From an uncultured Gemmatimonadales bacterium (GTDB lineage: Bacteria; Gemmatimonadota; Gemmatimonadetes; Gemmatimonadales; GWC2-71-9), in assembly GCA_963779755.1 (NCBI GenBank), contig CAVZZO010000003.1, forward strand, positions 320,001 through 384,000: a stretch of 64,000 nt of DNA. Reading direction: 5' to 3'. The notes beneath the pieces were generated by a model. That model was not told the DNA's origin and searched no databases. It saw nothing but the letters and a program-made list of their open reading frames with translations. Positions 46,171 to 63,508 of the stretch are shown one piece after another; positions within the stretch are counted from its first letter, which is position 1, and the number at the start of each line of letters is the position of its first letter. A program made the position numbers and the translations under genes.

Positions 46171-46171
46171 C

Positions 46172-46708
46172 ATGTACGCGGATCCTTTCGGGTTGAGAGG
46201 CTGTCCAGATGTTACGGGAACTGACCCGAATAGTCTAGACGATTGTCCGGAGCGATCCCCAGGTTACTATGCTGCTCGCATTGCCAAGGGTGAAGGTAGC
46301 AGGGTGTTGAATACGGCTTTGGGAGTACTCGCCACGATGGGTCAGGTGCTGGCGGAGCATACGACGGGGAGTGTCACAGTCGGTGAAGAAAGTATCGAGA
46401 CGGATGCCTATGGACTCACGGGTGGACTGGAAAATGGCAATACCAGAGTAGTGCAACGAGTCGGACTTCCCCAGATAGGAGGAAGCCTCGGATTCACTGT
46501 TGGGAATCCGGGTACTGGCGCCGTTGATTTTGGATGGAGCAAGCATCTCGGCATCACGATTCATACCGTGCCCAGTCCTGAAGGCGGCGGAATCTCTGGA
46601 ATCACCTTCAATCTCGGAATCGGCACACCGACCCTTATCGGCATCCAGGACCGGACAGTCGTGTCGCAACCGATTCCCAAATGCCTCGTCTCATGTGCAC
46701 ATGAGTAG
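46172..46708 (+). CDS. Orphan Rhs C-terminal toxin-like tip, type A
   Basis: Starts MYADPFGL (Rhs DPxGL boundary motif), then a unique 170 aa; visibly lower GC. Confidence 0.7.
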   Translation: MYADPFGLRGCPDVTGTDPNSLDDCPERSPGYYAARIAKGEGSRVLNTALGVLATMGQVLAEHTTGSVTVGEESIETDAYGLTGGLENGNTRVVQRVGLPQIGGSLGFTVGNPGTGAVDFGWSKHLGITIHTVPSPEGGGISGITFNLGIGTPTLIGIQDRTVVSQPIPKCLVSCAHE

Positions 46709-46937
46709 TCTACTTGGGTGGTTTCTGGTTGCCGGGGGAATTTTCTACATCGGCGCTGCTGCGTTCGACTGGATTGGGCGAGCAGCAAGTGTGCCCATCG
46801 TGAAGTGGCTTATCCTGCCGCTCCGCATAGGTGAAATACGCTGGGTTGGTGGTGGCAATCGACGATTTGCCGCTACCCTCGGCATCTTTCTTCTAGTCAT
46901 CGGCTTGCTACTCGTCTTGTTCGGTCCTGAACGATAG
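46701..46937 (+). CDS. Putative immunity protein, two TM segments
   Basis: Overlaps tip stop (ATGAGTAG); 78 aa hydrophobic; function inferred from position. Confidence 0.6.
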   Translation: MSSLLGWFLVAGGIFYIGAAAFDWIGRAASVPIVKWLILPLRIGEIRWVGGGNRRFAATLGIFLLVIGLLLVLFGPER

Positions 46938-46946
46938 GCTGCCGAA

Positions 46947-47435
46947 GGAGCCGGCCTCGTCTAGCCTGGGGCGCTCGCAGTGCCTCCGGGTTGTCGGGCC
47001 TGAGCTCCGAGGGGTCGGGTCTAGTTAGGAGCCTCGCGGGCTGCCGCGCGTGGCGGACCTCGGCCGGCGGAAAAGGAAAGTGGTGGGGGCCCCACGAGTT
47101 CAGCGGAACCCATCGGCTCCAGACCTGCCGCGAGCCGGCTCCCTCGTCGGGCGTCATGCGCCCACGGGAGCAGACGGGGTCACCCCACCGGCTCCAAGGT
47201 GCTACCCGGTCCTTCGATTGTCAAAGAGCGCCGCGTTCCGCGTGCCGGCGGGATCCTGGCACCACCCTCATAGGTCGTTGAGGCTCGGGGCCTCCCACAT
47301 CTTCATGGATGCTCTCCGATCCGCGGCCGGGCGGCCAGCAACACTCTGTGCGCGGAGCTCACCGAAGACGCCGGCGGCTCAAGGCAAATAGTGGGCGGCC
47401 CGGCCGCGCACGCGCGGCTCCCCACCGATCTCCGG
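46947..47435 (-). ncRNA. Putative bridge/seek RNA region with one donor and two target loops
   Basis: Non-coding, conserved in three copies, downstream of the recombinase; guide segments match the end junction and attC. Confidence 0.8.
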
Positions 47436-48704
47436 CTATTCGCTCACCACCGGCTCTGCCCGATGCCGCTGCGCCTCCCAGCGCTCCCGCTCGAACGGCT
47501 GGCCCGAGTGGAGTACGGCCAGGAGGAGCGGCACCAGCTTGCGCGCCACCGCACAGACCGCCTTGGTCCGGAGCCCGCCATTGCGGGCCAGCAGGGCCTG
47601 ATAGTACGCGCGGTAGAGCCCCCGGGGCTGGCACCAGCGGCCGCCCAGGAGGAACAGCTGGCGGCGGAGCAGCGGCCGGCCCCGTTTGGACTGTTTGCGC
47701 CGCCCCTGCACGCTGCCGCTGGAACGCTCGACCAGATTCATGCCTGCGAGTTTCAGCACCTGGCGGGGATGAGTGAAGCGCTCCGGAGTGCCCAGCTCGG
47801 CCACAATCGTAGCCGCACAGGTGGCACTCACCTCGGGAATGGTGGTCAGCGCCTTGGCGGCGGGACACTGCTCCACCAAGGCGGCGATCTGCTGGTTCAA
47901 CACCGCGAGCTGCTCCCGCAGGAGGTCCCAGCGGGCCAGGAGCTGCTGGATCTCCAACCGCCGCTCGGGAGCGGCGTCGGCCAGGGCGACACTGGTGCGG
48001 GCGGACTCGCGCAGGACGTGGAGCCGCTCCGGGCCCACGTGGCCCCGCGAGACGGACCGCGCCAGGCGCGTCACCGCGGCCGGGGCGGCCGCCAGGAAGT
48101 CCTGCGGCAGCGGCCAACGCGCCAGCAGGGCGCGCGGGGTGGGCTTGCGCACCTGCGAGAAGTGCGTCAGGAACTCGGGCCAGGCCAGGTCGAGCAGGCT
48201 CTGGAGACGGTTCTTGAACCGGGTTTCCTCGACGGTTAACCGGTGCCGGTGGGTGGTGAGCAGCCGCAGCTCGAGATACGGGGGCTGCAGCGCCGGATAT
48301 CCCACGAAGATCCCCAGGCTCACCAGCTTGCAGATCTCGGCGGCATCCTTCGCGTCCGTCTTGTTGGGGCTGTTATCCTCCAGTTCCTTGGCCCGCTTGG
48401 TGTGGGCCGGCAGGATATTGACCAGCGCATAGCCGCGCGCCCGCAGGCACTCGGCAAACGTGAAGCCGTGATGGCCGGCGAACTCCAGCCCCACCAGCAT
48501 CTGTCCGGGCCGGATGCCGGGAAACCAGGCCGTCAACTGCGCCGCGGCGGCCTCGAAGCCCGCGCGGCTCACCGGCACCCGGACCGGCTTCGTGCGGCGC
48601 CCATCGGGGCCCTGAGCAACCAGCACGTGGACCCGCTTCGCGGTATCCACGCCTACGTGAACGGGGAACGTGCGGGTATAGGCAGACTTTTCGTCGGGGG
48701 TCAT
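47436..48704 (-). CDS. IS110 family DEDD recombinase/transposase
   Basis: VGVDTAK, GLEFAG, KTDAKDA and C-terminal RSSGS; alternative start 48731. Confidence 0.95.
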   Translation of the reverse strand: MTPDEKSAYTRTFPVHVGVDTAKRVHVLVAQGPDGRRTKPVRVPVSRAGFEAAAAQLTAWFPGIRPGQMLVGLEFAGHHGFTFAECLRARGYALVNILPAHTKRAKELEDNSPNKTDAKDAAEICKLVSLGIFVGYPALQPPYLELRLLTTHRHRLTVEETRFKNRLQSLLDLAWPEFLTHFSQVRKPTPRALLARWPLPQDFLAAAPAAVTRLARSVSRGHVGPERLHVLRESARTSVALADAAPERRLEIQQLLARWDLLREQLAVLNQQIAALVEQCPAAKALTTIPEVSATCAATIVAELGTPERFTHPRQVLKLAGMNLVERSSGSVQGRRKQSKRGRPLLRRQLFLLGGRWCQPRGLYRAYYQALLARNGGLRTKAVCAVARKLVPLLLAVLHSGQPFERERWEAQRHRAEPVVSE

Positions 48705-48796
48705 GGCGCGGCTCCGGGTGGAGGGAATCACAGGAGTCGCGGAAGGAGCTACGGGCCGCGCAGCGGCGTCAAGCGGGTATAGATGTCTAGTTAAGC

Positions 48797-49277
48797 GACT
48801 ATGCTCGGGTTGCGTACTTCACGGGGAGGTCAAGACTCCGCTCTCTTCTGCGGGGAGGCTCGACTCGAGGCCGGGGTGCTCCTGCGGCGACTCCGGCGGG
48901 GCGAGAAGCTCGGGCTCCCGCACTCCCGACCGATACCGGGACTCGGCCGGCGGTGTCAAGAGTTGCGGATTCCCGACCAAGGACGCCACCTGGCGGATCA
49001 TCTATCGGCTCGATCGAGACGCAATCGTGATTGTGGAGGTCTTTGCGAAGAGCCAAGCGACTCCACAACAGGTCCTGGCCACGTGCGCGCGGCGGCCGAA
49101 CCACTAGGATGCGGTGAGCCGCGGGGAGGATTGATCATGAACAAACGGAAGCAGAAGCGGCTGGAAGCTGCCGGCTGGCGGGTGGGAACGACCACCGACT
49201 TCCTCGACCTCTCCCCTGAGGAGGCCGCCTTGGTGGAGCTGCGCCTGAAGCTGAGCGCGGCCCTCCGTCGAATCTGA
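48797..49277 (+). pseudogene. Decayed RelE/Gp49-like toxin plus truncated HTH antitoxin
   Basis: LHGEVKTP, ARLEAGVLLRRL..LGLPHSRP, WRIIYRLDRDAIVIVEVFAK in shifting frames; antitoxin MNKRKQKRLEAAGW stops before the HTH. Confidence 0.8.
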
Positions 49278-49287
49278 GTGGGTTGCT

Positions 49288-49427
49288 GGCTAACGAAGTG
49301 CGCGTGTGCTGCGGCGCGAACCTTCAGGTCTTCACAAACCTACGCGTCCTTATCCGTGCCACTAGGAGCCCGAGAGACTAGAGGAGACCGGCGCGACCGG
49401 CCCCGCAGAACGAAGCGCTAGTGAGGT
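49288..49427 (-). repeat. attC site with one core mismatch
   Basis: GGCTAAC...GCGCTAGTGAGGT. Confidence 0.85.
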
Positions 49428-49446
49428 GGCCCACTGCGGCCGCTCA

Positions 49447-49629
49447 CTACACTTCGTACGAGATCGGAAGGGCATGCAAGCACTCGGGGCAGAAATAGAT
49501 GCGGCGGGCGACGACAACCGAGCGGGCGCGCTTGTAGAAGATTCTGTCGAGCGAGGCATCACACGAGGGACATAGCGGGACCAGATCGCCCCTCTCCTCA
49601 TACGTGATTTTGGAATAGCGCTCCATCAT
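49447..49629 (-). CDS. Small zinc-ribbon protein
   Basis: CPSC...CPEC, 60 aa. Confidence 0.6.
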   Translation of the reverse strand: MMERYSKITYEERGDLVPLCPSCDASLDRIFYKRARSVVVARRIYFCPECLHALPISYEV

Positions 49630-49736
49630 GCCGCCCCCATCGTTAGAGCATGAAGTCAAGGAAGCCGAGGGATGGAACCGGGGCTCGAGCCCGACAAAGC
49701 AGGATGCCCTCCCTCCGGGGTGAGCCATTCCGCGCC

Positions 49737-49875
49737 ACCTAACGAAGTGCACGTGTGCTGCCGCGCGAGCCTTCAGGTCTTCACAAACCTACGCGTCCTT
49801 AGCCGCACCGCCAGGGCCGGAGCGTGCGCCCGCGGCCCTCGCGACCGGCCCGCCTGCTGCAAACACTGGTTAGAC
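49737..49875 (-). repeat. attC site
   Basis: ACCTAAC...CACTGGTTAGAC. Confidence 0.9.
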
Positions 49876-49889
49876 CGCAGCGTCCGCCA

Positions 49890-49918
49890 TTGACAGATAG
49901 ACGCCAGCGGCGTATATT
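49890..49918 (+). promoter_or_regulatory. Sigma70 promoter of TA cassette with palindromic operator in the spacer
   Basis: TTGACA-N17-TATATT; ACGCC-AGC-GGCGT. Confidence 0.8.
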
Positions 49919-49923
49919 GACGC

Positions 49924-50235
49924 ACGGAACTGATCGAAACAGCGGTCTTTACCAAACAAGCGACCGCCGAATGGTCGGCGGAGGCGTACCGGGCTTTCCA
50001 GCTCTACCTGGTGCTCAACCCGGAGGCCGGGGCCGTCATTCCCGGCGCCGGCGGTCTACGAAAGGTCCGCTGGCGACTGCCAGGCCGGGGCAAGCGCGGT
50101 GGTGCCCGGGTGATCTACTACTACAAGAATGCCGCGGGCCGGATCTACCTCTTGTTCCTGTATCCGAAGCACGTGCGGAGTGATCTGAGCCCCGGGGAGC
50201 TGCGGACGCTCCGGGCTCTCGTGGAGTCGGAGTGA
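49924..50235 (+). CDS. RelE/HigB-family toxin with ACG at the expected start
   Basis: ELIETAVF...NPEAGAVIPGAGGLRKVRW..GKRGGARVIYY. Confidence 0.8.
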   Translation, partial: TELIETAVFTKQATAEWSAEAYRAFQLYLVLNPEAGAVIPGAGGLRKVRWRLPGRGKRGGARVIYYYKNAAGRIYLLFLYPKHVRSDLSPGELRTLRALVESE

Positions 50236-50256
50236 TTCATTGACCGAGAGGATGAC

Positions 50257-50602
50257 CATGCGCAAGGACCTGTTCGACCAACTGCTGGCCAGCATCACGC
50301 AGATGAAGGAGATCGAGGCGGGCCGCCGGAAGCCCTCCCGGGTAACCCGCGGGGAGGACTTGCTGGCCAGCGAGCCCCCCGACGTCGCGGCCCTCCGTGC
50401 CCACTTTGGCTTGAGCCAGAGCAAGTTCGCGGCGCTACTTGGCATCAGCGTGGATACTCTGCAGAACTGGGAGCAGCATCGCCGCACGCCCGAGGGGCCT
50501 GCTCGGGTGCTTCTTCGTGTCGCCGCGACTCATCCGGAGGCGCTGCTTTCGATCTCCCAGAACCCCGCCCCCCGCCGTCGCGCCCGCAAAATAGCCGTCT
50601 AG
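50257..50602 (+). CDS. HTH (HigA-like) antitoxin
   Basis: GLSQSKFAALLGISVDTLQNWEQHRRTPEGPA; start approximate. Confidence 0.85.
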
Positions 50603-50637
50603 CCGCCTCGACCGACGCCACGGAGCGAGGTGCTGCG

Positions 50638-50779
50638 GTCTAACGAAGTGCGCGTGTGTTGCAGCGCGATCCCCACCTCCTTCACAAACCTACGTTTCCG
50701 CAGCGCGGCCGCTAGATCGACGGGAAATGCACCAACCGCCGGCAGCCCCCGGCCTGCAGAACGATGCTGCTTGTTAGGA
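50638..50779 (-). repeat. attC site
   Basis: GTCTAAC...GCTTGTTAGGA. Confidence 0.9.
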
Positions 50780-50806
50780 GGCGCCCGGCGTATTACATTG
50801 CATGAC

Positions 50807-51028
50807 ATGAAAAGCTCAGCCCTGACCATCCGCCTCGATCCCGAATTGGAGCGAGAGCTCGCCCGGGTGGCGAAACGCTCCGGCCGTTCCCGCAGCCAGG
50901 TCGTCCGCGACGCCTTACGCCGTCAACTGGCGATCGCTCAATTCCAGGATCTCCGCCGCCGGATCATGCCGCTCGCTGAGGCTGCCGGCTACCTGACCGA
51001 TGAGGATGTCTTTCGCGACGTCTCGTGA
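50807..51028 (+). CDS. CopG/ribbon-helix-helix antitoxin
   Basis: LTIRLDPEL...SRSQVVRDALRR. Confidence 0.85.
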   Translation: MKSSALTIRLDPELERELARVAKRSGRSRSQVVRDALRRQLAIAQFQDLRRRIMPLAEAAGYLTDEDVFRDVS

Positions 51029-51426
51029 GAGTCTTCTTCGATACCAATGTGCTGGTGAGCGCATTGGCTACTCGGGGGCTATGCGCTGACCTCTTCCAAG
51101 CTACTCTGGCGGACCATGATCTTCTCATTGGCGAAACGGTCATCGCCGAACTCACGGACGTTCTCAAACGTAAATTCCACGCCAGTGCCGCGAACCTCGC
51201 TGAAATCGAAGCGCTCCTGCGTCGGCATGGCGAAGTCATTCACAGTGAGCGGCTACTGCAGGTGAGGATCCGTGATCCCAAAGATCGAGCGATTCTCGCG
51301 GAAGCCGTTGCTGGTCGGGCAGATATCCTGGTCACAGGGGACCGTGACCTTCTCTCCATCACCGCCCGCGCGCCGATACCAATTCGCTCGCCCAGGGAGT
51401 TTTGGGAGGCCCTCCGGTCGAAATAG
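51025..51426 (+). CDS. PIN-domain toxin
   Basis: FFDTNVLVSA, RDPKD, LVTGDRDLL; GTGA overlap. Confidence 0.9.
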   Translation: MRVFFDTNVLVSALATRGLCADLFQATLADHDLLIGETVIAELTDVLKRKFHASAANLAEIEALLRRHGEVIHSERLLQVRIRDPKDRAILAEAVAGRADILVTGDRDLLSITARAPIPIRSPREFWEALRSK

Positions 51427-51443
51427 CTCCGATACTTAGCGCC

Positions 51444-51583
51444 TCCTAACGAACTGCGCGTGTGCTGCAGCGCGATCCCGACTTCCTTCACAAACCTACG
51501 TTTCCGCAGCGCCGCCGCTAGATGCCCGGGACATGCTCCGATGCCGGCAGCACCGGCCCGCCCATTGGAAACGCTAGTTAAAC
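51444..51583 (-). repeat. attC site
   Basis: TCCTAAC...GAAACGCTAGTTAAAC. Confidence 0.9.
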
Positions 51584-51967
51584 CGCCATCGGGCGGATGC
51601 TCGCCCGCACCCACTCCAAAAGCTGCTCCCGGCTCAGGCGGCCAGCCGCAACTCCCAGAATGACCTCTTCCGCCTTGTCCACCGAAGAAACCAGCTCCTG
51701 GCCATTGAGAACCAAGAAGACTTCCATAGCTGCGTGGCCGATCCGCTTGTTCCCGTCCACAAAGGGATGATTCTGGATCAGGCTAAACGCCAGGGCGGTC
51801 GCCTTGGCCGCGAGGTCCGGGTACAGGTCCTCTCCACCAAAGGTCATCCGTGGCTGGGCGAGCGCGGCCTCAAGCGCCCCGAGGTCCCGGATGCCAGAAG
51901 CGCCGCCGCTCTGATGGAGCAGACGGCGCTGAAGCTCAATCGCTTCGCCGAGTGTGAGGTACCGCAC
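51578..51967 (-). CDS. doc: Doc/Fic family toxin
   Basis: HPFVDGNKRIG; stop within attC core. Confidence 0.92.
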   Translation of the reverse strand: MRYLTLGEAIELQRRLLHQSGGASGIRDLGALEAALAQPRMTFGGEDLYPDLAAKATALAFSLIQNHPFVDGNKRIGHAAMEVFLVLNGQELVSSVDKAEEVILGVAAGRLSREQLLEWVRASIRPMAV

Positions 51968-51968
51968 C

Positions 51969-52163
51969 CTAGGCGAGCCGGCGATACAGTTCGCTGTTCT
52001 TGCTCAGAACACGACGCGCAGCTTCCTCGAAGTCCTTCTCGGGGTTCGCGATGAAGTCACGCACCGCCGCCGCGGCCAGATCCGCCGGGGGAACGCGCAA
52101 CTCCGCGGCGGCCTCCCGGAGGCGCCGCTCGGCATCGTCAGGCAGTTGGATCGAAAGGGTCAT
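51969..52163 (-). CDS. Antitoxin partner of Doc
   Basis: 64 aa ending KNSELYRRLA, directly upstream of doc. Confidence 0.82.
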   Translation of the reverse strand: MTLSIQLPDDAERRLREAAAELRVPPADLAAAAVRDFIANPEKDFEEAARRVLSKNSELYRRLA

Positions 52164-52216
52164 AGAGCCTCCGCTCCAATTCTAGCCCATCCGGACGCTC
52201 CGGGCCAGTTCTGGCG

Positions 52217-52357
52217 GTTTAACGAAGTGCGCGTGTGCTGCGGCGCGATGCCCAGCACCCTCACAAACCTACGTTTCCACCGCGCGACCGCGAGACCACT
52301 GGGAAATGCCCCAAGCGGCCGCAGCGCCGGCCCGCCTGCTGCAAACACTTGTTAGAG
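52217..52357 (-). repeat. attC site
   Basis: GTTTAAC...CACTTGTTAGAG. Confidence 0.9.
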
Positions 52358-52427
52358 GGCTTTGCCTTGCTCGTACAACGATATAGCGATAGATTACGCA
52401 GTCGTTGTACAGGCCTAGGAGGACAGA

Positions 52428-52634
52428 GTGTCTATCGTCAAAGTGTCGCCCAAGTACCAGGTGGTCATCCCGCAAAAGATCCGGGAAGCCCTCGGGATTG
52501 CTCCGGGCCAGAAGGTCCAGGCTATCCAGTACGGCGACCGGATCGAGTTCATCCCCGTGAAGCGGTTGCGGCAAATGCGTGGCTTTCTTGGGGGCATCGA
52601 CACTGAGGTGCCCCGCGAAGCGGACCGGGTGTGA
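52428..52634 (+). CDS. AbrB/MazE/SpoVT family antitoxin
   Basis: VSPKYQVVIPQKIREALGIAPG. Confidence 0.9.
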   Translation: MSIVKVSPKYQVVIPQKIREALGIAPGQKVQAIQYGDRIEFIPVKRLRQMRGFLGGIDTEVPREADRV

Positions 52635-53005: not shown

Positions 53006-53015
53006 GGGCAAAGCT

Positions 53016-53156: not shown

Positions 53157-53157
53157 C

Positions 53158-53669: not shown

Positions 53670-53718
53670 GCTTCAATCTCGGTCCGGGGCCCCAGGTAGG
53701 CAAGATCAGGGCAATGAG

Positions 53719-53859: not shown

Positions 53860-53860
53860 G

Positions 53861-54446: not shown

Positions 54447-54447
54447 C

Positions 54448-54903
54448 ATGTACGCGGATCCTTTCGGGCTGCTTGCCCAGGATTGTTGTATCGAAACGGG
54501 GGATTGGCGAAAGGATAACCTGCTTCACCCTGCTGTCTACAGCGGCAAGAGAGACAACCCGATGCTGGGAGTAGCTGTGGGTCTCCTGGCCGTTGCAGGT
54601 GGGGCCGAACTGGCTGCTCCCAGGTTATTTGCCGCGGCCACCGCTGCTCTTCCTAAGGTACCGTTTGAGAAATTCCAGGACTGGGGACGAAATGTTGTCC
54701 AATGGGGCCGTGGGGCAGCGGGGGCAATTCAGCGGGTTTCTGAAGTGACGGCCGAGCAGGCCTCTAAATTGGATCCACAGAAAGTGAAGATGGCTCGCGA
54801 CTTCTACCAGAAAGCTGTTGATGCTGGCCGAGGGGGAGCCGCCGCACCCGAACGAGTAAAGCTGATGGAACGCATTTTAGACCTGCAGCAGAGAACCCAT
54901 TAG
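54448..54903 (+). CDS. Orphan Rhs C-terminal toxin-like tip, type B
   Basis: MYADPFGL start, hydrophobic linker, C-domain WGRGAAGAIQR..FYQ..RVKLMERI reminiscent of DUF4951 (from memory, unverified). Confidence 0.72.
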   Translation: MYADPFGLLAQDCCIETGDWRKDNLLHPAVYSGKRDNPMLGVAVGLLAVAGGAELAAPRLFAAATAALPKVPFEKFQDWGRNVVQWGRGAAGAIQRVSEVTAEQASKLDPQKVKMARDFYQKAVDAGRGGAAAPERVKLMERILDLQQRTH

Positions 54904-54949
54904 TGGCTCGGTCCGGTCTATTCGAGCATTGCAACACGGAGGAAGAGCC

Positions 54950-55198
54950 ATGCTGGAAGCAGCGGTCACACTTCGGCTTACGAATAGATGCGAAACTGCG
55001 CGGAAGCTCGTGATTGAGCCATGGACCACCGAGTTTCGACTGCAACCTGGGCACACTTACGACTTGGTGATATCAGGGGACCTTGGCCTCCCCTTAGAGG
55101 TTGAGTTCGAGGACGACGAACTAACCGTATACACTTTCGATTCCGCCAATGCCTCCTTCAAGATTTCCGAAGGCGGGGCTGAACTTAAACCACTGTAG
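54950..55198 (+). CDS. Putative immunity protein
   Basis: GGAGG RBS, 82 aa acidic protein with IEPW motif, directly after the tip. Confidence 0.65.
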   Translation: MLEAAVTLRLTNRCETARKLVIEPWTTEFRLQPGHTYDLVISGDLGLPLEVEFEDDELTVYTFDSANASFKISEGGAELKPL

Positions 55199-55687
55199 GA
55201 GCCCGGCCCTGTCTAGCCTGGGGCGCTCGGGGCGCCTCCGGGTTGTCGGGCCTGAACTCCGAGGGGTCGGGTCTAGTTAGGAGCCTCGCGGGCTGCCGCG
55301 CGTGGCGGACCTCGGCCGGCGGAAAAGGAAAGTGGTGGGGGCCCCACGAGTTCAGCGGAACCCATCGGCTCCAGACCTGCCGCGAGCCGGCTCCCTCGTC
55401 GGGCGTCATGCGCCCACGGGAGCAGACGGGGTCACCCCACCGGCTCCAAGGTGCTACCCGGTCCTTCGATTGTCAAAGAGCGCCGCGTTCCGCGTGCCGG
55501 CGGGATCCTGGCACCACCCTCATAGGTCGTTGAGGCTCGGGGCCTCCCACATCTTCATGGATGCTCTCCGATCCGCGGCCGGGCGGCCAGCCATACTCTG
55601 TGCGCGGAACTCACCGAAGACGCCGGCGGCTCAAGGCAAATAGAGGGCGGCCCGGCCGCGCACGCGCGGCTCCCCCCCGGTCTCCGA
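55198..55687 (-). ncRNA. Putative bridge/seek RNA region, copy 2
   Basis: Near-identical to 46947-47435; guide segments unchanged. Confidence 0.8.
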
Positions 55688-56956
55688 CTATTCGATCACC
55701 ACCGGCTCTGCGTGATGCCGCTGGGTCTCCCAGCGCTCCCGGTCGAACGGCTGGCCCGACTGGAGCACGGCCAGGAGGAGCGGCACCAGCTTGCGGGCCA
55801 CCGCGCAGACCGCCTTGGTCCGGAGCCCCCCGTTACGGGCGAGCAGGGCCTGATAGTACGCGCGGTAGAGCCCCCGGGGCTGGCACCAGCGGCCGCCCAG
55901 GAGGAACAGCTGGCGGCGGAGCAGCGGCCGGCCCCGTTTGGACTGTTTGCGCCGCCCCTGCACGCTGCCGCTGGAACGCTCGACCAGATTCATGCCTGCG
56001 AGTTTCAGCACCTGGCGGGGATGAGTGAAGCGCTCCGGAGTGCCCAGCTCGGCCACAATCGTAGCCGCACAGGTGGCACTCACCTCGGGAATGGTGGTCA
56101 GCGCCTTGGCGGCGGGACACTGCTCCACCAAGGCGGCGATCTGCTGGTTCAACACCGCGAGCTGCTCCCGCAGGAGGTCCCAGCGGGCCAGGAGCTGCTG
56201 GATCTCCAACCGCCGCTCGGGAGCGGCGTCGGCCAGGGCGACACTGGTGCGGGCGGACTCGCGCAGGACGTGGAGCCGCTCCGGGCCCACGTGGCCCCGC
56301 GAGACGGACCGCGCCAGGCGCGTCACCGCGGCCGGGGCGGCCGCCAGGAAGTCCTGCGGCAGCGGCCAACGCGCCAGCAGGGCGCGCGGGGTGGGCTTGC
56401 GCACCTGCGAGAAGTGCGTCAGGAACTCGGGCCAGGCCAGGTCGAGCAGGCTCTGGAGACGGTTCTTGAACCGGGTTTCCTCGACGGTTAACCGGTGCCG
56501 GTGGGTGGTGAGCAGCCGCAGCTCGAGATACGGGGGCTGCAGCGCCGGATACCCCACGAAGATCCCCAGGCTCACCAGCTTGCAGATCTCGGCGGCATCC
56601 TTCGCGTCCGTCTTGTTGGGGCTGTTATCCTCCAGTTCCTTGGCCCGCTTGGTGTGGGCCGGCAGGATATTGACCAGCGCATAGCCGCGCGCCCGCAGGC
56701 ACTCGGCAAACGTGAAGCCGTGATGGCCGGCGAACTCCAGCCCCACCAGCATCTGTCCGGGCCGGACGCCGGGAAACCAGGCCGTCAACTGCGCCGCGGC
56801 GGCCTCGAAGCCTGCGCGGCTCACCGGCACTCGGACCGGCTTCGTCCGCCGGCCATCGGGGCCCTGGGCGACCAGGACGTGAACGCGCTTGGCGGTGTCC
56901 ACACCCACGTGGACGGGAAACCAGCGGGCGTAGGCGGACTTCTCATCGGGGGTCAT
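55688..56956 (-). CDS. IS110 family DEDD recombinase/transposase
   Basis: Near-identical to copy 1; intact; alternative start 56983. Confidence 0.95.
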   Translation of the reverse strand: MTPDEKSAYARWFPVHVGVDTAKRVHVLVAQGPDGRRTKPVRVPVSRAGFEAAAAQLTAWFPGVRPGQMLVGLEFAGHHGFTFAECLRARGYALVNILPAHTKRAKELEDNSPNKTDAKDAAEICKLVSLGIFVGYPALQPPYLELRLLTTHRHRLTVEETRFKNRLQSLLDLAWPEFLTHFSQVRKPTPRALLARWPLPQDFLAAAPAAVTRLARSVSRGHVGPERLHVLRESARTSVALADAAPERRLEIQQLLARWDLLREQLAVLNQQIAALVEQCPAAKALTTIPEVSATCAATIVAELGTPERFTHPRQVLKLAGMNLVERSSGSVQGRRKQSKRGRPLLRRQLFLLGGRWCQPRGLYRAYYQALLARNGGLRTKAVCAVARKLVPLLLAVLQSGQPFDRERWETQRHHAEPVVIE

Positions 56957-57065
56957 AGCGCGGCTCCGGGTGGAAGGAATCACAGGAGTCGCGGAAGGAG
57001 CTACGGGCCGCGCCGCGGCGTCAAGCGGGTATAGATGTCTAGTTAGGCTTCACTGCGCATTCAAC

Positions 57066-57446
57066 TTATCCGAAGCGTTCTCTGAAGCCTTCCTGTGCCT
57101 CGCTGATAATAGGCAAGAGCTCGTGCTCGGCGACTTGAACAGTTTCGATACCAAGCCGCTCCGCCTCACTGGCTACGGACTGAGCTACCAGATCCTTCGG
57201 AAGAAGCAGGGTCTTTGGCCAGCGCCTCTTATGATCATGCGCCTCCTTCAGCAGACGCTTTGCCTCGAGCTGACTGGGCTCCGCCTGATCTACTGGAACG
57301 GGCGCGGAGCTGAGAATGAAGCAGCTCGCCGCGTCCATCAGTGCAAGAAAATGGAAATCCCCGTCCTGCTCTGTGCGGATGGGCTCCTTGTTCAGTTTGA
57401 ACCAGATCCAGGCTTGGTTGATTTCGAACTGATTTGGGTGGAGCAC
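57066..57446 (-). CDS. Hypothetical cassette protein
   Basis: GTG start after AGAGG; fills the cassette. Confidence 0.7.
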   Translation of the reverse strand: MLHPNQFEINQAWIWFKLNKEPIRTEQDGDFHFLALMDAASCFILSSAPVPVDQAEPSQLEAKRLLKEAHDHKRRWPKTLLLPKDLVAQSVASEAERLGIETVQVAEHELLPIISEAQEGFRERFG

Positions 57447-57464
57447 TGGTGAACCTCTGGTGAA

Positions 57465-57605
57465 GCCTAACGAAGTGCGTTTCAGCGGCGGCGCGATGCC
57501 CCGCTCCTCCACAATCCTACGCTTCCACAGCGCGACCGCTAGATCCGGGGGCAATGCACCAACAGGCAGCAGCACCGGCCCGCCCGCTGGAAACGCTAGT
57601 TAGGG
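57465..57605 (-). repeat. attC site
   Basis: GCCTAAC...GAAACGCTAGTTAGGG. Confidence 0.9.
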
Positions 57606-58100
57606 TCGCAGGCGCTCGACACCCAAGTGAACCGGTTTCCACGAGTCGAAACCGGTACCGATCAGCGCGCCGAGAGCACCCCACGTCAGGCCAGTACCGA
57701 TTATGGCTCCGGCTTCCCCCTGACCTGCAGGTCGCTGCTCCGCTGTGCCGACCACATAGACCAAGGCCAGGCCGGCGCCCACGAGCGCACCGATCACCGC
57801 TCCTCGCCGTGCTTGGTTGCCTTGGCGTACTTCGACGAGGCTCAACCCGGCCGCGGGCCGGCGAATGGTGTCCGCGGCCCCCCTCGCAGTGCACGCGGGA
57901 CTCGGGTAGCTGCAATACACGATAGTATCCGTCTGGGCACCGAGTGGCGACAGCAAACGCCCACGCGCTGGAGGAGCGAGGGACCACGTCAGACGCACCA
58001 CACTCCCAACGGGGAGAACGGCTAGGGAGTCCCTCTTCTGGGCACCGGCAATCGCTGGCCACAGAAGGAGCAGGGCGACTGCAAAGAAGGCATGCCGCAT
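57600..58100 (-). CDS. Hypothetical exported protein with C-terminal glycine-rich hydrophobic hairpin
   Basis: Signal peptide; RGAVIGALVGAG...GALGALIG; stop in attC core. Confidence 0.65.
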   Translation of the reverse strand: MRHAFFAVALLLLWPAIAGAQKRDSLAVLPVGSVVRLTWSLAPPARGRLLSPLGAQTDTIVYCSYPSPACTARGAADTIRRPAAGLSLVEVRQGNQARRGAVIGALVGAGLALVYVVGTAEQRPAGQGEAGAIIGTGLTWGALGALIGTGFDSWKPVHLGVERLRP

Positions 58101-58178
58101 GTGCCGGGCCCGTGGAAGGAGACCTTCTGCCACTACTTGTTCTCCGTCCTCCAGCCGTGACCTAGTCGACTTGCTGCG

Positions 58179-58318
58179 CCCTAACGAAGTGCGTTTCAGC
58201 GGCGGCGCGATGCCCCGCTCCCTCACAATCCTACGCTTCCACAGCGCGGCCGCTAGATGTTTGGAGTTGCGCCAGGCGGCAGCAGCCCCGGCCCGTCCGC
58301 TGGAAACGCTAGTTACGC
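58179..58318 (-). repeat. attC site
   Basis: CCCTAAC...GAAACGCTAGTTACGC. Confidence 0.9.
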
Positions 58319-58324
58319 AGCAGC

Positions 58325-58537
58325 CTAAAGGTCGTTCGGAGTGAGCCCGGTATGCTTCGAGATTCGGGCGAGCATTCTGGGACCGATCTCCTCTTGGTCA
58401 TGGAAGGCAAAGACGAAGTCAGGCCAGCCTGCCCGACTCAACGTCCGGTGGGAGCCGGATTCGCGCTTGACAGACCAGCCGATCCGGAGAAGAGCCGCCA
58501 AGACCCGTCGGGCCTTGGCAGCTCCCCAGCTACTCAT
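58325..58537 (-). CDS. hicA: HicA family toxin
   Basis: LLRIGWSVKRESGSH, FAFHDQEEIG. Confidence 0.88.
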   Translation of the reverse strand: MSSWGAAKARRVLAALLRIGWSVKRESGSHRTLSRAGWPDFVFAFHDQEEIGPRMLARISKHTGLTPNDL

Positions 58538-58740
58538 GCGGCCTGAAAGCTAAGGTTCAGGAGTTCGGGGACAGCCTCGCCATGCTCCAAGCGTTCGGCC
58601 AAGGAACGCAAGGCCAGGGCTTGGACCCTCGCCACGGCGTCAGGCCGCGTGACCCCGTAGGCCATCACGCCCGGGAGGTCCTGGACCTCCGCAAGCCAAC
58701 GGCCATCAGTCTCCTGTTCGACCTCGATACGGAGAATCAC
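58534..58740 (-). CDS. hicB: HicB family antitoxin
   Basis: EQETDGRWLAEVQDLPGVMAYG. Confidence 0.88.
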   Translation of the reverse strand: MILRIEVEQETDGRWLAEVQDLPGVMAYGVTRPDAVARVQALALRSLAERLEHGEAVPELLNLSFQAA

Positions 58741-58797
58741 GGCGTTCCTCCAAGGCTAGTTTGCTTGGCCCAAATCTAACTGGGAAGCGGCCTTGCT

Positions 58798-58937
58798 GCG
58801 TAACGAAGTGCGCGTGTGCTGCAGCGCGATCCCGACTTCCTTCACAAACCTACGTTTCCGCAGCGCGGCCGCTAGATCCCTCGGAGATGCCCCACCCGGC
58901 GGCAGCACCGGCCTGCAGAACGACGCGCTTGTTACAC
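58798..58937 (-). repeat. attC site
   Basis: GCGTAAC...GACGCGCTTGTTACAC. Confidence 0.9.
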
Positions 58938-58943
58938 AGCACC

Positions 58944-59213
58944 CTAGAGGTCTTGGATCAGCCGCTCGTACTCGTCGTGGGAGCCAATCCAAAACCAAAG
59001 AATGAGCTCGCCCTCGCGCACGCCAAGAGCGCGATACCCCAGACTGACCCGGGCGGAGTAGATCGGCTGTGTGGCGTGGACTGGCTTGAAATGCAGGCTT
59101 GGGTGCTGCGGGTCGTCACGGAATTGCTGATAGGCCTTGCGGGCTCGCTCCTGCACATGGACCGGTAAGGCCCCGAACGCCTTCCGGAACCGGGCCGTGG
59201 TCCTGGAGATCAA
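58944..59213 (-). CDS. RelE/ParE-fold toxin
   Basis: TTG start overlapping the upstream stop; HPSLHFK, YSARVSLGYRALG, WFWIGSHDEY. Confidence 0.85.
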   Translation of the reverse strand: MISRTTARFRKAFGALPVHVQERARKAYQQFRDDPQHPSLHFKPVHATQPIYSARVSLGYRALGVREGELILWFWIGSHDEYERLIQDL

Positions 59214-59428
59214 AGCCGGTCGGGATCTAGAGCCTCTGATCGGCCGGCCCGATGCTCCTCCAGGGCCTCCTGGGCCAGCCTCTGCAGCTGATCTCCAGAG
59301 GCACCCAAGAGGGCTTCCCACCGCGCATCGGCGGCCAATTCTTCCAGGATCGCGGCGGCAAGCTCGTCCTGGTCCTTGGGGGGGAGCCGGGAGGCCACTT
59401 CAAAGGCCTTCTTCAGGTTACGGGTCAT
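59210..59428 (-). CDS. Putative antitoxin
   Basis: 72 aa acidic protein coupled to the toxin. Confidence 0.8.
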   Translation of the reverse strand: MTRNLKKAFEVASRLPPKDQDELAAAILEELAADARWEALLGASGDQLQRLAQEALEEHRAGRSEALDPDRL

Positions 59429-59478
59429 GCTGGATGATATGGCAAAGGAGAGCGGCGCGCTAGCCGCGCCTCAGTGCT

Positions 59479-59618
59479 GTGTAACGAAGTGCGCGTGTGC
59501 TGCAGCGCGGTCCTTCAGGATTTCACAAACCTACGCTTCCACAGCCGCGCCGCCAGGAGGCCGGAGTGTGGGCCAGGGGCCTGCGCGACTGGCCTGCAGA
59601 ACGACGCGCTTGTTATAT
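59479..59618 (-). repeat. attC site
   Basis: GTGTAAC...GACGCGCTTGTTATAT. Confidence 0.9.
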
Positions 59619-59818
59619 GGCGAAACGCTCTCGGCCTCAACCGGAACCGGGGCCAAATGCCTGGGCCGCCTCACGGAGACCGGGGCGCCGGCACCTGTTG
59701 GAACTTCTGCCGCGCTTTGATGCATGGCGGCCCGAACAGCGCCCTCAAGGAACTTGGGCGGCCACCACCAGATGCTGTTGTACATCAAAAGAGAACGAGC
59801 AGTCCAGCCCGTTCGACC

Positions 59819-59958
59819 ATATAACGAAGTGCGCGTGTGCTGCAGCGCGATCCCTCAGGTTCTCACAAACCTACGCTTCCACAGCCGCGGCGCCAGGAGG
59901 CCCGGGCGAGGGCCGGCGGTCCGCGCGACCGGCCTGCAGAACGACGCGCTTGTTAGGT
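59819..59958 (-). repeat. attC site
   Basis: ATATAAC...GACGCGCTTGTTAGGT. Confidence 0.9.
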
Positions 59959-60357
59959 TGCTGCAGGATGCCCGCTGCGCCGGCGCCATTCAAAGACGAC
60001 GACCAGGGCGAGAACGAGCAGAATGGGAGCCGTCAGTACCCCTGGGGTATAGCCTCCTTGCTGCCAGGACCACAACGGATGACCGACGCCGTTGATGACT
60101 TCGATGGTCACCCAGAACGTGACAATCGCTCCCGTCCCACGCCAGCCGCGCCTCACGGGCCAGATAAAGCACCAAACCCCAAAAGCAACGAGGGCGACAT
60201 TGAGGACCGCAAACCCGACCTGCCGGTTGCTCGACACTAAGCCGGTGAGAATGCGGGCTGGCGGGAAGGAGTCGTAGAGCTTGCCCAGATATTCCTCGAC
60301 CGAGTGCGCTGCCTGGCCAAGTACCAGTGCTCCAAACGCCAAGTGAAAGCGAGACAT
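59953..60357 (-). CDS. HXXEE domain membrane protein
   Basis: AHSVEE, INGVGH, YTPGVLTA; stop in attC core. Confidence 0.85.
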   Translation of the reverse strand: MSRFHLAFGALVLGQAAHSVEEYLGKLYDSFPPARILTGLVSSNRQVGFAVLNVALVAFGVWCFIWPVRRGWRGTGAIVTFWVTIEVINGVGHPLWSWQQGGYTPGVLTAPILLVLALVVVFEWRRRSGHPAAT

Positions 60358-60368
60358 GCTTGGCAGCA

Positions 60369-60508
60369 ACCTAACGAAGTGCGCGTGTGCTGCAGCGCGG
60401 TCCTTCAGGTTCTCACAAACCTACGTTTCCTTAGCCGCGCCGCCAGGAGGCTCGGCCGATGCCAGGCAGCCAGCGCGACCGGCCTGCAGAACGACGCGCT
60501 TGTTAGCA
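60369..60508 (-). repeat. attC site
   Basis: ACCTAAC...GACGCGCTTGTTAGCA. Confidence 0.9.
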
Positions 60509-60790
60509 ACCAGCTGCGCACGGCGGCCTAGGCTAGCCCGGAGCCCGCGCCCCGAAGCCCTGGCCGCCCGCTGGGAACGGTGCGGCGCGGGGACGGCCCG
60601 GTGGCGTGGAACTCTCACGGCACCTGCCCTGCCCCGACCGCGCCGGGCTCCAGAAGCCCTGGGCGGCGGATTCGTTTGAGCCTTTCTGCACGGAGGCGGG
60701 GCCGCCCGCAAGGAGTTGCTCTCGGGTTCCTGAGCTCCGCGGCCCTCATGGGGCCCACCAAAGAGACCCGCTGCGGTGCCTCGCTTGTGT

Positions 60791-60921
60791 TGCTAACGAA
60801 GTGCGCGTGTGCTGCAGCGCGATCCCTCAGGATTTCACAAACTTACGCTTCCACAGCCGCGCCGCCAGGAGGCCGGAGCATGGGCCCGCGGCCCGCGCGA
60901 CGGCCTGCAGAACGACGCGCT
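60791..60921 (-). repeat. attC site interrupted by IS110-family element (remainder at 63505-63514)
   Basis: Ends CAGAACGACGCGCT; TGTTAGAC resumes after the element. Confidence 0.9.
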
Positions 60922-60922
60922 C

Positions 60923-61377
60923 ATGTACGCGGATCCTTTCGGGCTGCCTGCCCAGGATTGTTGTATCGAAACGGGGGATTGGCGAAAGGATAACCTGCTT
61001 CACCCTGCTGTCTACAGCGGCAAGAGAGACAACCCGATGCTGGGAGTAGCTGTGGGTCTCCTGGCCGTTGCAGGTGGGGCCGAACTGGCTGCTCCCAGGT
61101 TATTTGCCGCGGCCACCGCTGCTCTTCCTAAGGTACCGTTTGAGAAATTCCAGGACTGGGGACGAAATGTTGTCCAATGGGGCCGTGGGGCAGCGGGGGC
61201 AATTCAGCGGGTTTCTGAAGTGACGGCGAGCAGGCCTCTAAATTGGATCCACAGAAAGTGAAGATGGCTCGCGACTTCTACCAGAAAGCTGTTGATGCTG
61301 GCCGAGGGGGAGCCGCCGCACCCGAACGAGTAAAGCTGATGGAACGCATTTTAGACCTGCAGCAGAGAACCCATTAG
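60923..61377 (+). pseudogene. Rhs tip type B with 1-bp deletion near 61227 (possible sequencing error)
   Basis: GTGACGGCGAGC versus GTGACGGCCGAGC in copy 2. Confidence 0.65.
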
Positions 61378-61423
61378 TGGCTCGGTCCGGTCTATTCGAG
61401 CATTGCAACACGGAGGAAGAGCC

Positions 61424-61672
61424 ATGCTGGAAGCAGCGGTCACACTTCGGCTTACGAATAGATGCGAAACTGCGCGGAAGCTCGTGATTGAGCCATGGAC
61501 CACCGAGTTTCGACTGCAACCTGGGCACACTTACGACTTGGTGATATCAGGGGACCTTGGCCTCCCCTTAGAGGTTGAGTTCGAGGACGACGAACTAACC
61601 GTATACACTTTCGATTCCGCCAATGCCTCCTTCAAGATTTCCGAAGGCGGGGCTGAACTTAAACCACTGTAG
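61424..61672 (+). CDS. Putative immunity protein, identical to copy 2
   Basis: Same translation as 54950-55198. Confidence 0.65.
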   Translation: MLEAAVTLRLTNRCETARKLVIEPWTTEFRLQPGHTYDLVISGDLGLPLEVEFEDDELTVYTFDSANASFKISEGGAELKPL

Positions 61673-62156
61673 GAGCCCGGCCCTGTCTAGCCGGGGCGCT
61701 CGGGGCGCCTCCGGGTTGTCGGGCCTGAACTCCGAGGGGTTGGGTCTAGTTAGGAGCCTCGCGGGCTGCCGCGCGTGGCGGACCTCGGCCGGCGGAAAAG
61801 GAAAGTGGTGGGGGCCCCACGAGTTCAGCGGAACCCATCGGCTCCAGACCTGCCGCGAGCCGGCTCCCTCGTCGGGCGTATGCGCCCACGGGAGCAGACG
61901 GGGTCACCCCACCGGCTCCAAGGTGCTACCGGTCCTTCGATTGTCAAAGAGCGCCGCGTTCCGCGTGCCGGCGGGATCCTGGCACCACCCTCATAGGTCG
62001 TTGAGGCTCGGGGCCTCCCACATCTTCATGGATGCTCTCCGATCGCGGCCGGGCGGCCAGCAACACTCTGTGCGCGGAGCTCACCGAAGACGCCGGCGGC
62101 TCAAGGCAAATAGAGGGCGGCCTGGCCGCGCACGCGCGGCTCCCACCGATCTCCGG
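61672..62156 (-). ncRNA. Putative bridge/seek RNA region, copy 3
   Basis: Near-identical to the other copies with a few single-base deletions. Confidence 0.75.
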
Positions 62157-63422
62157 CTATTCGCTCACCACCGGCTCTGCGTGATGCCGCTGCGCCTCCC
62201 AGCGCTCCCGCTCGAACGGCTGGCCCGAGTGGAGTACGGCCAGGAGGAGCGGCACCAGCTTGCGCGCCACCGCACAGACCGCCTTGGTCCGGAGCCCGCC
62301 ATTGCGGGCCAGCAGGGCCTGATAGTACGCGCGGTAGAGCCCCCGGGGCTGGCACCAGCGGCCGCCCAGGAGGAACAGCTGGCGGCGGAGCAGCGGCAGG
62401 CCCCGTTTGGACTGTTTGCGCCGCCCCTGCACGCTGCCGCTGGAACGCTCGACCAGATTCATGCCTGCGAGTTTCAGCACCTGGCGGGGATGAGTGAAGC
62501 GCTCCGGAGTGCCCAGCTCGGCCACAATCGTAGCCGCACAGGTGGCACTCACCTCGGGAATGGTGGTCAGCGCCTTGGCGGCGGGACACTGCTCCACCAA
62601 GGCGGCGATCTGCTGGTTCAACACCGCGAGCTGCTCCCGCAGGAGGTCCCAGCGGGCCAGGAGCTGCTGGATCTCCAACCGCCGCTCGGGAGCGGCGTCG
62701 GCCAGGGCGACACTGGTGCGGGCGGACTCGCGCAGGACGTGGAGCCGCTCCGGGCCCACGTGGCCCCGCGAGACGGACCGCGCCAGGCGCGTCACCGCGG
62801 CCGGGGCGGCTGCCAGGAAGTCCTGCGGCAGCGGCCAACGCGCCAGCAGGGCGCGCGGGGTGGGCTTGCGCACCTGCGAGAAGTGCGTCAGGAACTCGGG
62901 CCAGGCCAGGTCGAGCAGGCTCTGGAGACGGTTCTTGAACCGGGTTTCCTCGACGGTTAACCGGTGCGGTGGGTGGTGAGCAGCCGCAGCTCGAGATACG
63001 GGGGCTGCAGCGCCGGATATCCCACGAAGATCCCCAGGCTCACCAGCTTGCAGATCTCGGCGGCATCCTTCGCGTTCGTCTTGTTGGGGCTGTTATCCTC
63101 CAGTTCCTTGGCCCGCTTGGTGTGGGCCGGCAGGATATTGACCAGCGCATAGCCGCGCGCCGCAGGCACTCGGCAAACGTGAAGCCGTGATGGCCGGCGA
63201 ACTCCAGCCCCACCAGCATCTGTCCGGGCCGGACGCCGGGAAACCAGGCCGTCAACTGCGCCGCGGCGGCCTCGAAGCCTGCGCGGCTCACCGGCACTCG
63301 GACCGGCTTCGTCGCCGGCCATCGGGGCCCTGGGCGACCAGGACGTGAACGCGCTTGGCGGTGTCCACACCCACGTGGACGGGAAACCAGCGGGCGTAGG
63401 CGGACTTCTCATCGGGGGTCAT
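62157..63422 (-). pseudogene. IS110 recombinase with several 1-bp deletions (possible sequencing errors)
   Basis: Single C missing near 62967, 63160 and 63313 relative to copy 2. Confidence 0.8.
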
Positions 63423-63508
63423 AGCGCGGCTCCGGGTGGAAGGAATCACAGGAGTCGCGGAAGGAGCTACGGGCCGCGCCGCGGCGTCAAGCGGGTATAG
63501 ATGTCTTG

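Follow-up and report, generated by a model that had tools for sequence, protein, structure and literature searches.

This study concerns three units that resemble mobile elements within a 64,000-nucleotide stretch of DNA from an uncultured Gemmatimonadales bacterium (assembly GCA_963779755.1, contig CAVZZO010000003.1, positions 320,001 to 384,000), hereafter the window. Each unit combines a DEDD recombinase gene and a non-coding region with two further genes, the first of which encodes the C-terminal tip of a predicted Rhs toxin. The units lie within an array (42046–64000) of 22 attC-like repeats of ~135 nucleotides (nt) each, 21 recognized by pattern together with the repeat at 49740, with short cassettes between them. 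The ends of the repeats are complementary and fall into two covarying classes, namely ...GACGCGCTTGTTA with TAACGAAGTGCGCGTG and ...GAAACGCTAGTTA with TAACGAAGTGCGTTTCAG, such that intact array members terminate in ...GACGCGCTTGTTA or ...GAAACGCTAGTTA. DNA folds pair the two ends, as expected for the paired-end repeats of integrons; the fold energy is no better than that of shuffled sequences. No integron integrase was detected among the window open reading frames (ORFs) tested by Pfam, including the ORFs to the left of the array, and the array continues past position 64000.

Three attC repeats of the first class are broken at an identical position and in a single orientation, with all three units located at GACGCG-CT-(A/T)GTTA, which is the mode of insertion of IS1111-attC elements. 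The units measure 2616 nt (46171–48786), 2592 nt (54447–57038) and 2583 nt (60922–63504), and each is flanked on either side by CT, which is likewise the core of IS621. Deletion of a unit together with one CT regenerates the sequence of the intact attCs, and only removal of the whole 2.6 kb does so. The termini common to all three units comprise 22 nt at the left and 14 nt at the right (in the orientation of the window), and within the 64 kb both terminal motifs are found with zero mismatches only at the three units. An original prediction made for this DNA had proposed these boundaries, the restored attC end and the common termini, as well as a mobile unit that includes two genes oriented oppositely to the recombinase, and all of these proposals are borne out here. 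With respect to the two end classes present in the array, the units occupy only the GACGCGCT class. The features of the array and the units are as follows:

42046–64000, no strand: attC-like repeat array, recognized by repeat pattern, complementary ends and pairing of the ends in DNA folds
46169–46170, no strand: CT core on the cargo side of unit 1, with its twin copy at 48787–48788
46171–46192, + strand: right end (RE) of unit 1, 22 nt common to the three units and coding for M-Y-A-D-P-F-G, the Rhs core/tip boundary
46172–46708, + strand: cargo gene 1 of unit 1 (P0001, 178 amino acids), Rhs C-terminal tip, from homologues behind Rhs cores, and predicted toxin
46701–46937, + strand: cargo gene 2 of unit 1 (P0005, 78 amino acids, hydrophobic), candidate immunity protein by its position, as in relatives
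46952–47002, − strand: target-guide module M2 of unit 1, with guides at 46986–46994 and 46961–46969, predicted to read the Rhs core end N-N-P-(V/L)-A-W
47012–47061, − strand: target-guide module M1 of unit 1, with guides at 47046–47051 and 47021–47029 that match both attC flanks
47248–47325, − strand: donor-guide loop of unit 1, with covarying closing stems, a guide at 47297–47302 complementary to the start of the left end (LE) and a guide at 47267–47273 equal to the end of the RE plus core
47436–48704, − strand: unit 1 gene for the DEDD recombinase, whose ORF remains open to 48731, with the start at 48704 agreeing with homologues
48705–48786, − strand: LE of unit 1, with the terminus ...GGGTATAGATGT
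54447–57038, − strand: unit 2, with RE at 54447–54468, recombinase gene at 55688–56956 and LE extending to 57038
54448–54903 and 54950–55198, + strand: cargo of unit 2, Rhs tip P0002 (DUF4951) and second gene P0003
55204–55254 and 55264–55313, − strand: target modules M2 and M1 of unit 2
60922–63504, − strand: unit 3, with the cargo of unit 2 and target modules at 61678–61727 and 61737–61786

Anatomy and cargo of the units

Read along the strand of the recombinase (−), each unit runs from the LE through the DEDD recombinase gene (422–431 amino acids) and ~490 nt free of ORFs to the two genes on the opposite strand and the RE. The recombinase of unit 1 matches the Pfam families DEDD_Tnp_IS110 (E 1.8e-24) and Transposase_20 (E 1.5e-16), both past the curated cut-offs, as is required for the IS110 family. 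The ~490-nt region downstream of its gene (46938–47435) contains blocks that are conserved in 24 sequences, and a long non-coding region in this position is a criterion for the IS1111 group (PMC11187229, PMC11208160). In some relatives, GCGATCC or CGGATCC is present near both ends.

Units 1 and 2 resemble each other in their first ~22 nt and then from 46948 (unit 1) and 55199 (unit 2) as far as the right end, with 56 differences across 1839 shared columns, whereas the intervening ~770 nt, which comprise the two cargo genes, are unrelated. Unit 3 resembles unit 2, except that its backbone is unit 1-like at ~62060–62310. This mosaic of unit 1-like and unit 2-like backbone indicates that the copies recombined among themselves.

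The first cargo gene begins at base 2 of the element with MYADPFGL in 3/3 units, as originally predicted. Translated in six frames, the window contains the motif DP.GL six times; three of these occurrences lie within the units, and the other three are attributable to chance. P0001 has 16 relatives at E ≤ 0.001 among 1.84 billion representatives, and residues 2–60 of P0001 align behind an Rhs core end (...DPIGLAGG.NLY.Y.GNNP...DPFGL) in 9 of the 13 homologues retrieved. Another match is a 1953-amino-acid protein, aligned at 1784–1843, and two further homologues start with M-x-F-x-DP(F/Y)GL, as P0001 does. P0002, encoded by units 2 and 3, contains a DUF4951 domain over the Pfam cut-off and is 42% identical to the tip of L028, one of 29 related loci (numbered with the prefix L) described below, where the tip sits behind an Rhs core end; P0003 is likewise 42% identical to the gene following the L028 tip. 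A core end ahead of DPFGL or DPYGL is also present in three of the four further P0002 homologues retrieved (P0144–P0146). An initial search for P0002 homologues among longer proteins returned none, a weak indication that is contradicted by the comparisons with L028 and P0144–P0146.

Since homologues of both P0001 and P0002 lie behind Rhs core ends, we assign both first cargo genes as Rhs C-terminal tips, each accompanied by a small gene in the immunity position, in line with the original prediction, against which unrelated cargo would have counted. Thus, the products of the first genes are predicted toxins and those of the second genes are, by position, candidate immunity proteins. Neither P0003 nor P0005 matches a Pfam family over cut-off. 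The predicted structure of P0001 (8 sequences) has a mean predicted local distance difference test score (pLDDT) of 53.7 and was not used, and that of P0002 (5 sequences) has a mean pLDDT of 56.9 with a helical C-terminal part. A fold search of the PDB with P0002 yielded only the uncharacterised DUF4951 nuclear magnetic resonance structure 2mmb (E 0.019), which was also returned by the sequence search, and in the ESM Atlas P0001 matched unnamed clusters only, with a best score of 0.90.

Relatives at Rhs core ends

The recombinase has 492 homologues at E ≤ 0.001. Among the 120 listed, identity ranges from 62 to 97%, and the three that are named belong to Gemmatimonadetes or Gemmatimonadales, which places the recombinase, on present comparisons, in a large Gemmatimonadota clade. 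As regards kinship with ISPst6, ISKpn4 and ISPa21, a mark of the IS1111-attC group, the comparison covered plasmid records, in which no IS110-family gene exceeds 33% identity to the window recombinase; blastn of unit 1 against plasmids gave no match. A scan of GTDB species genomes for related loci with a single recombinase sequence found none; a scan with an alignment of 25 recombinase members yielded the 29 related loci, 26 of which are titled Gemmatimonadota. The recombinase C-terminal part and at least 1.1 kb downstream are present in 22 of the 29, which were thus assessable.

In 21 of these 22 loci, a tip with the boundary motif D(P/A)FGL lies on the opposite strand 1172–1838 nt past the end of the match and is followed by a second gene, in the same place as in the window. 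The check proposed with the original prediction, namely whether recombinase homologues have DPxGL-starting ORFs at the distal end, therefore returned a positive result. The DAFGL form is found in L005, and the sole exception is L020, where the gene is truncated. An Rhs core end precedes D(P/A)FGL in frame in 13 of the 21 loci, and in five loci the open frame upstream of the boundary extends over 1209–1702 residues, with Pfam RHS_repeat present in all five. The tips of the relatives are diverse (144–175 residues) and include known pairings of tip and second gene by Pfam, namely Ribonuclease with Barstar in L013 and DUF4329 with Imm-NTF2-2 in L006.

The LE flank can be read in 17 loci, and in 10 of them a second DPxGL tip is located immediately after the LE and core dinucleotide, as would be expected of a former tip that had been displaced. 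Ten bases separate the core from the D codon in the window, as they do in the relatives apart from those of one assembly, and therefore insertion at such an Rhs core-end site would keep the frame. Other surroundings are also observed. L019 has attC-like flanks on both sides, L016 (48% recombinase identity) occupies a palindromic site that is neither Rhs nor attC (6066–6110 and 8915–8927), the LE flank of L006 may, as we read it, be a decayed DPFGL site, and the LE flanks of L002, L010, L022 and L026 are other sequence. In L011, the LE of one unit is joined via the core to the RE of the next unit.

One metagenome-assembled genome (MAG) harbours at least five copies (L010–L013 and L024), whose readable cargoes (L011, L012, L013 and L024) are different tips. 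The MAG contigs of L003, L005 and L014 start exactly at the core dinucleotide ahead of the LE, which suggests that the repeat interrupts assemblies and that there are more copies than counted. Polymorphic toxins, Rhs among them, are known to change their warheads and leave behind arrays of orphan tips. Long orphan-tip arrays with ~30 core codons per tip stand beside an element copy in L023 (12160–19067) and L027 (2702–5439); arrays of this kind, with core codons, are the classical pattern that has been ascribed to homologous recombination.

A repeat structure of this sort could in principle be produced by metagenomic assembly or binning. All of the relatives are MAG contigs, three of them beginning exactly at the LE, and unit 3 has lost nine single bases relative to unit 2, eight of which are C, with one deletion affecting the tip ORF and three affecting the gene for the recombinase; this copy appears to be either decayed or poorly assembled. 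Yet three units with different attC flanks and two cargoes reside on one contiguous window, and the same architecture recurs in 21 loci on different contigs (L011, L012, L013 and L024 share one assembly, and L015 and L018 another), such that an artefact is scarcely credible as an explanation.

The predicted guide RNA region

The non-coding region appears to encode a bridge/seekRNA-like RNA with one donor loop and 1–3 target modules, in which the loops correspond to the ends of the donor and to the flanks of the target, core included, as judged from sequence covariation only. In 24 aligned non-coding regions, the donor loop lies ~110–190 nt past the recombinase stop codon and is closed by two stems that are 94.6% paired, compared with 28–52% when the partners are slid. 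These stems contain 30 cells changed on both sides versus 8.3 ± 2.2 in shuffles (0/500 shuffles reach this value). Within the 5′ side of the loop, a hexamer is complementary to the first six bases of the LE and covaries with it: AGATGT is found with ACATCT in most loci, AGACGT with ACGTCT in L008 and L016, and AGAGGT or AGAGGG with ACCTCT in L019 and L009, with one or two mismatches in L001, L006 and L017. The 3′ side equals the last bases of the RE plus the first base of the core and covaries with the RE, the pairs being ATGAG with ...ACATG in the window, L007 and L016, GTGAG with ...ACGTG, TTGA with ...AGTTG, and TTCA with ...AGTTC in L009. The heptamer GCGGATC of the non-coding region was also considered as a guide for the RE and dropped, as it constitutes one strand of a covarying stem.

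Downstream of the donor loop follow the tandem target modules of ~50 nt, in each of which a 4-bp closing stem encloses, in order, an 8–9-nt guide, a hairpin and a second guide of 9 nt with the core at its end. Pairing in this stem reaches 94.1%, versus at most 51.5% when slid, and one of its pairs is either C-G (12) or U-A (4). A covariance model built from 17 modules, which was used in place of a strict regular-expression finder that missed most modules, gave 30 matches at E ≤ 0.1 in 361,742 nt, of which exactly six fall in the window, two per unit and all within the non-coding regions. Modules were also detected outside the studied element in L020 (7776–7900) and L009 (196–403), possibly as remnants of neighbouring copies.

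The first guide of a module is complementary to the flank beyond the RE, and hence beyond the cargo, and the second guide equals the flank before the LE plus the core. The same order, in which a segment complementary to one target strand precedes a segment that matches the other, is found in IS1111 seekRNAs (PMC11187229). Among 16 elements with a non-tandem flank, the far-side flank is matched over 6–9 nt by at least one of the element's own modules in ten (the window, L008, L009, L013, L014, L016, L017, L018, L023 and L028). For L008, L009, L013, L014, L017, L018 and L028, these are Rhs core-end guides that match over 7–9 nt. When only the first module is considered, own flanks score 66 compared with 48.1 ± 4.3 for permuted flanks, a value reached by 1/20000 permutations (4/20000 with one representative per class). 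The second guide matches the element's own near flank over 6–9 nt in the window, L006, L008, L016, L017 and L019, and by eye in L009, and its final two bases are the LE-side core in 9/9 cases. In the window as well as in L016 and L017, a single module matches, with its two guides, the sequence on either side of the whole unit, cargo included; in L016 this is the first module, indicating a third kind of address in addition to Rhs and attC.

The window copies carry two such addresses. The first guide of M1 matches 6 nt of the attC flank and the second matches 7–9 nt plus the core, from which it appears that M1 directed the window copies into the attC sites. We note that at least two intact attC sites, at 45620 and 59944, closely fit M1. 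The first guide of M2 (9 nt) is identical to that of a module in L014, where it matches the element's own Rhs flank over 9 nt, and in L023 both guide and flank have T at a position where those of L014 have C. The half-sites of M2 translate as N-N-P, (V/L) and A-W, which is the core end found in the L023 orphans. Because this type of guide matches an Rhs core end in a relative, the window copies can probably transfer to an rhs gene with a core end of the N-N-P-(V/L)-A-W type, where the insertion would read N-N-P-L-M-Y-A-D-P-F-G-L.

The extent of these guide matches also bears on what is mobile. In the relatives, the moving part might consist of the recombinase and the non-coding region only, targeting the DPFGL start of an orphan tip, with the cargo genes being resident upstream neighbours. 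Indeed, the RE cannot be placed from a single Rhs locus, since there the native gene has the same codons as the end of the element. For the window, however, such a unit is contradicted by three attC insertions that hold the cargo inside the duplicated CT, and among the relatives it is at odds with L019 in its attC-like site, L016 in its palindromic site and the LE-core-RE junction between two units in L011. Moreover, the far-flank guide matches the sequence beyond the tip rather than the sequence adjoining the non-coding region. We therefore regard this smaller unit as very improbable.

Proposed warhead exchange and its alternatives

Taken together, the comparisons indicate that the whole 2.6 kb is the inserted unit, that the donor loop reads the ends and the target modules read the flanks, and that the relatives stand in frame with an Rhs core and have a former tip past the LE. 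It is probable that the units are IS1111-type elements of the IS110 family, comprising LE, DEDD recombinase, guide-RNA region, immunity-type gene and Rhs tip, with an RE that codes for x-(Y/F)-x-D-P-F-G-L, and that they insert at Rhs core ends as a recombinase-driven form of C-terminal displacement. The original prediction that the end of the element is itself Rhs coding sequence, making the unit a vehicle for tip delivery, draws its strongest support from relatives that join the same end in frame to an Rhs core, with an older tip beyond the LE. The window copies, for their part, sit in attC sites and are fused to no core, and their delivery to an rhs gene would depend on the second guide module. 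Overall, the feature is real, and the earlier reading is supported and extended.

In addition to the state of unit 3 and the MAG origin of all relatives, a number of observations weigh against this reading. No rhs gene is present within the 64-kb window, and no exact M2 site was found in a relaxed scan of the relatives' loci retrieved, where M2 sites with at most 3 mismatches are Rhs core ends in only 3/15 cases. Sub-terminal inverted repeats are weak, with the best ungapped alignments giving 8–12 matches in 25 nt for the five elements compared; repeats of 7–17 bp with short terminal extensions are characteristic of the IS1111 group. Neither the window, at the gathering score, nor the non-coding region, at E ≤ 1, matches an Rfam family, and single-sequence folds of the window RNA do not surpass those of shuffled sequences (z 0.17 and 0.11). 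A far-flank match of 6 nt is lacking in 6 of the 16 elements (L001, L003, L004, L006, L007 and L019); L007 and L019 miss it by one base, and L001, L003, L004 and L006 are embedded in Rhs and have no matching guide. The assembly with L010–L013 and L024 does not fit the ten-base spacing, having 9 bases before the D codon at its LE-tip junctions, and as a result an ATG inside the LE is in frame with the displaced tip. Lastly, the RE-side dinucleotide is variable (GT, GC, AC or CT) and often unlike the LE-side core, and some junctions may therefore come from homologous recombination. The unmatched guides and irregular dinucleotides could reflect trans-acting guides from other copies, guide turnover or homologous recombination at core ends.

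Several of these points would also be expected of an ordinary site-specific insertion sequence that has passively captured a tip-immunity pair, perhaps as an addiction module, with in-frame fusions generated by homologous recombination at core ends and with no delivery function. The six elements that lack a guide match to the Rhs-side flank, the irregular RE-side dinucleotide (for example AC in L023), the classical orphan arrays of L023 and L027, with their core codons before each tip, and the mosaic unit 3, which illustrates that copies do recombine, are all in keeping with such a passenger. By contrast, the cargo is present in 21/22 assessable relatives, down to 48% recombinase identity, and is thus no one-off capture. 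Moreover, the LE meets the displaced tip at its exact terminus in 10 loci, guides for Rhs core ends match the elements' own flanks in seven, and all five long frames remain in frame across the junction. On this evidence, we consider passive capture unlikely, and the in-frame splicing of the relatives' tips onto complete toxin genes rather suggests a dedicated, RNA-guided exchange of warheads.

Such an exchange can be envisaged from the chemistry of IS110 and IS1111 elements (PMC11208160, PMC11187229). The element would excise as a circle that joins its two ends, whereupon the donor loop would hold the circle junction and a target module the insertion site. Exchange at the core would place the tip behind the Rhs core, at its last codons, such that the cell would gain a new warhead and immunity gene, with the old module being kept downstream. 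Because the RE resembles the sequence that it replaces, the new junction between core and RE would again be target-like, which would explain tandem units and arrays. Copies in attC sites would serve as a depot in which the tip is not fused to a core, and carriers would gain a toxin that kills cells without the element. With less assurance, but still on balance in favour, we propose that a phylum-wide, RNA-guided family of the IS1111 type acts as a programmable in-frame exchanger of Rhs warheads. The end of such an element would be a coding boundary, and its insertion would fuse a new tip, store the old tip with its immunity gene and regenerate the target. Extra modules would allow parking at attC and return to rhs, and carriers would kill non-carriers, such that the element would drive its own spread.

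Individual aspects of this arrangement have counterparts in other systems. Piv-type DEDD invertases, in which an IS110-related recombinase swaps the C-terminal coding part of a pilin gene, likewise exchange the C-terminal coding part of a host gene, but do so by inversion at a fixed chromosomal locus, with no mobile cargo element and no guide RNA shown. Similar to integron gene cassettes, which are small promoterless modules at attC, the units add two genes each to the array, although they have no attC of their own and their movement would use their own recombinase and RNA rather than the integrase. In Rhs C-terminal displacement, a new tip and immunity gene also come to lie behind the core, the old tip is shunted downstream, and a circular intermediate has been postulated (PMC2935791). 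What distinguishes the present elements is that recombinase and guide RNA travel with the tip and that the junction is at a fixed dinucleotide four codons before D-P.

The IS1111-attC elements ISKpn4, ISPst6 and ISPa25 target one end of attC in one orientation, and thus attC targeting is already known (PMC11187229). They share with the units a DEDD recombinase, a long downstream non-coding region and a short RNA with the same guide order as M1; no passenger genes are described for them in the relevant passages of that source. The units, for their part, have a coding RE and two target modules. Given that no plasmid-borne IS110-family gene is more than 33% identical to the recombinase, attC targeting by the window element is probably independent of this group. 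As in the bridge RNA of IS621 and other IS110 elements, one loop reads the donor and another the target, both including a short core, and for elements of the IS1111 group the RNA is predicted to lie in the RE (PMC11208160). Here, however, 1–3 tandem target modules accompany each donor loop, coding cargo lies between the RNA gene and the RE, and the RE is constrained by the reading frame. The IS110-family element ISPpu9 is similar in that the ssr9 module downstream of its recombinase moves as circles with or without the recombinase (PMC12288879), but this module is a small RNA gene that has no coding cargo and forms no fusion with a host gene. Engineered cargo in seekRNA elements has been published, and cargo carriage has until now been shown only with engineered inserts (PMC11187229).

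No published description of an IS110/IS1111 element with Rhs cargo was found in the literature searched by titles, abstract starts and passages, a scope that does not extend to supplements, where tables of insertion-sequence ends might list elements with a long RE, or to subscription journals. The element thus appears to be a variant of the IS1111 kind that we have not found described before. If the proposed reading holds, it would be the first naturally occurring bridge/seekRNA element to combine protein-coding cargo with several target guides, and it would supply the enzyme that is missing from the circular-intermediate model of Rhs C-terminal displacement. For the bridge/seekRNA field, it would also provide a case in which the end of an element is constrained by a reading frame. 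The presence of several target modules per donor loop suggests how a single recombinase could, in nature, be given more than one address, and the element links two cassette systems, integrons and Rhs loci. With recombinase, guide RNA, tip and immunity gene forming one unit that ends at the fusion point, the question of warhead exchange becomes directly testable.

The remainder of the window (1–41000) contains ordinary chromosomal genes, including a SusC/SusD-like pair, several alpha-amylase family genes, a GH2 glycosidase and a phosphofructokinase, as well as genes for a BlaR1-like protein with HEAT repeats, a HerA-like ATPase and an aquaporin.

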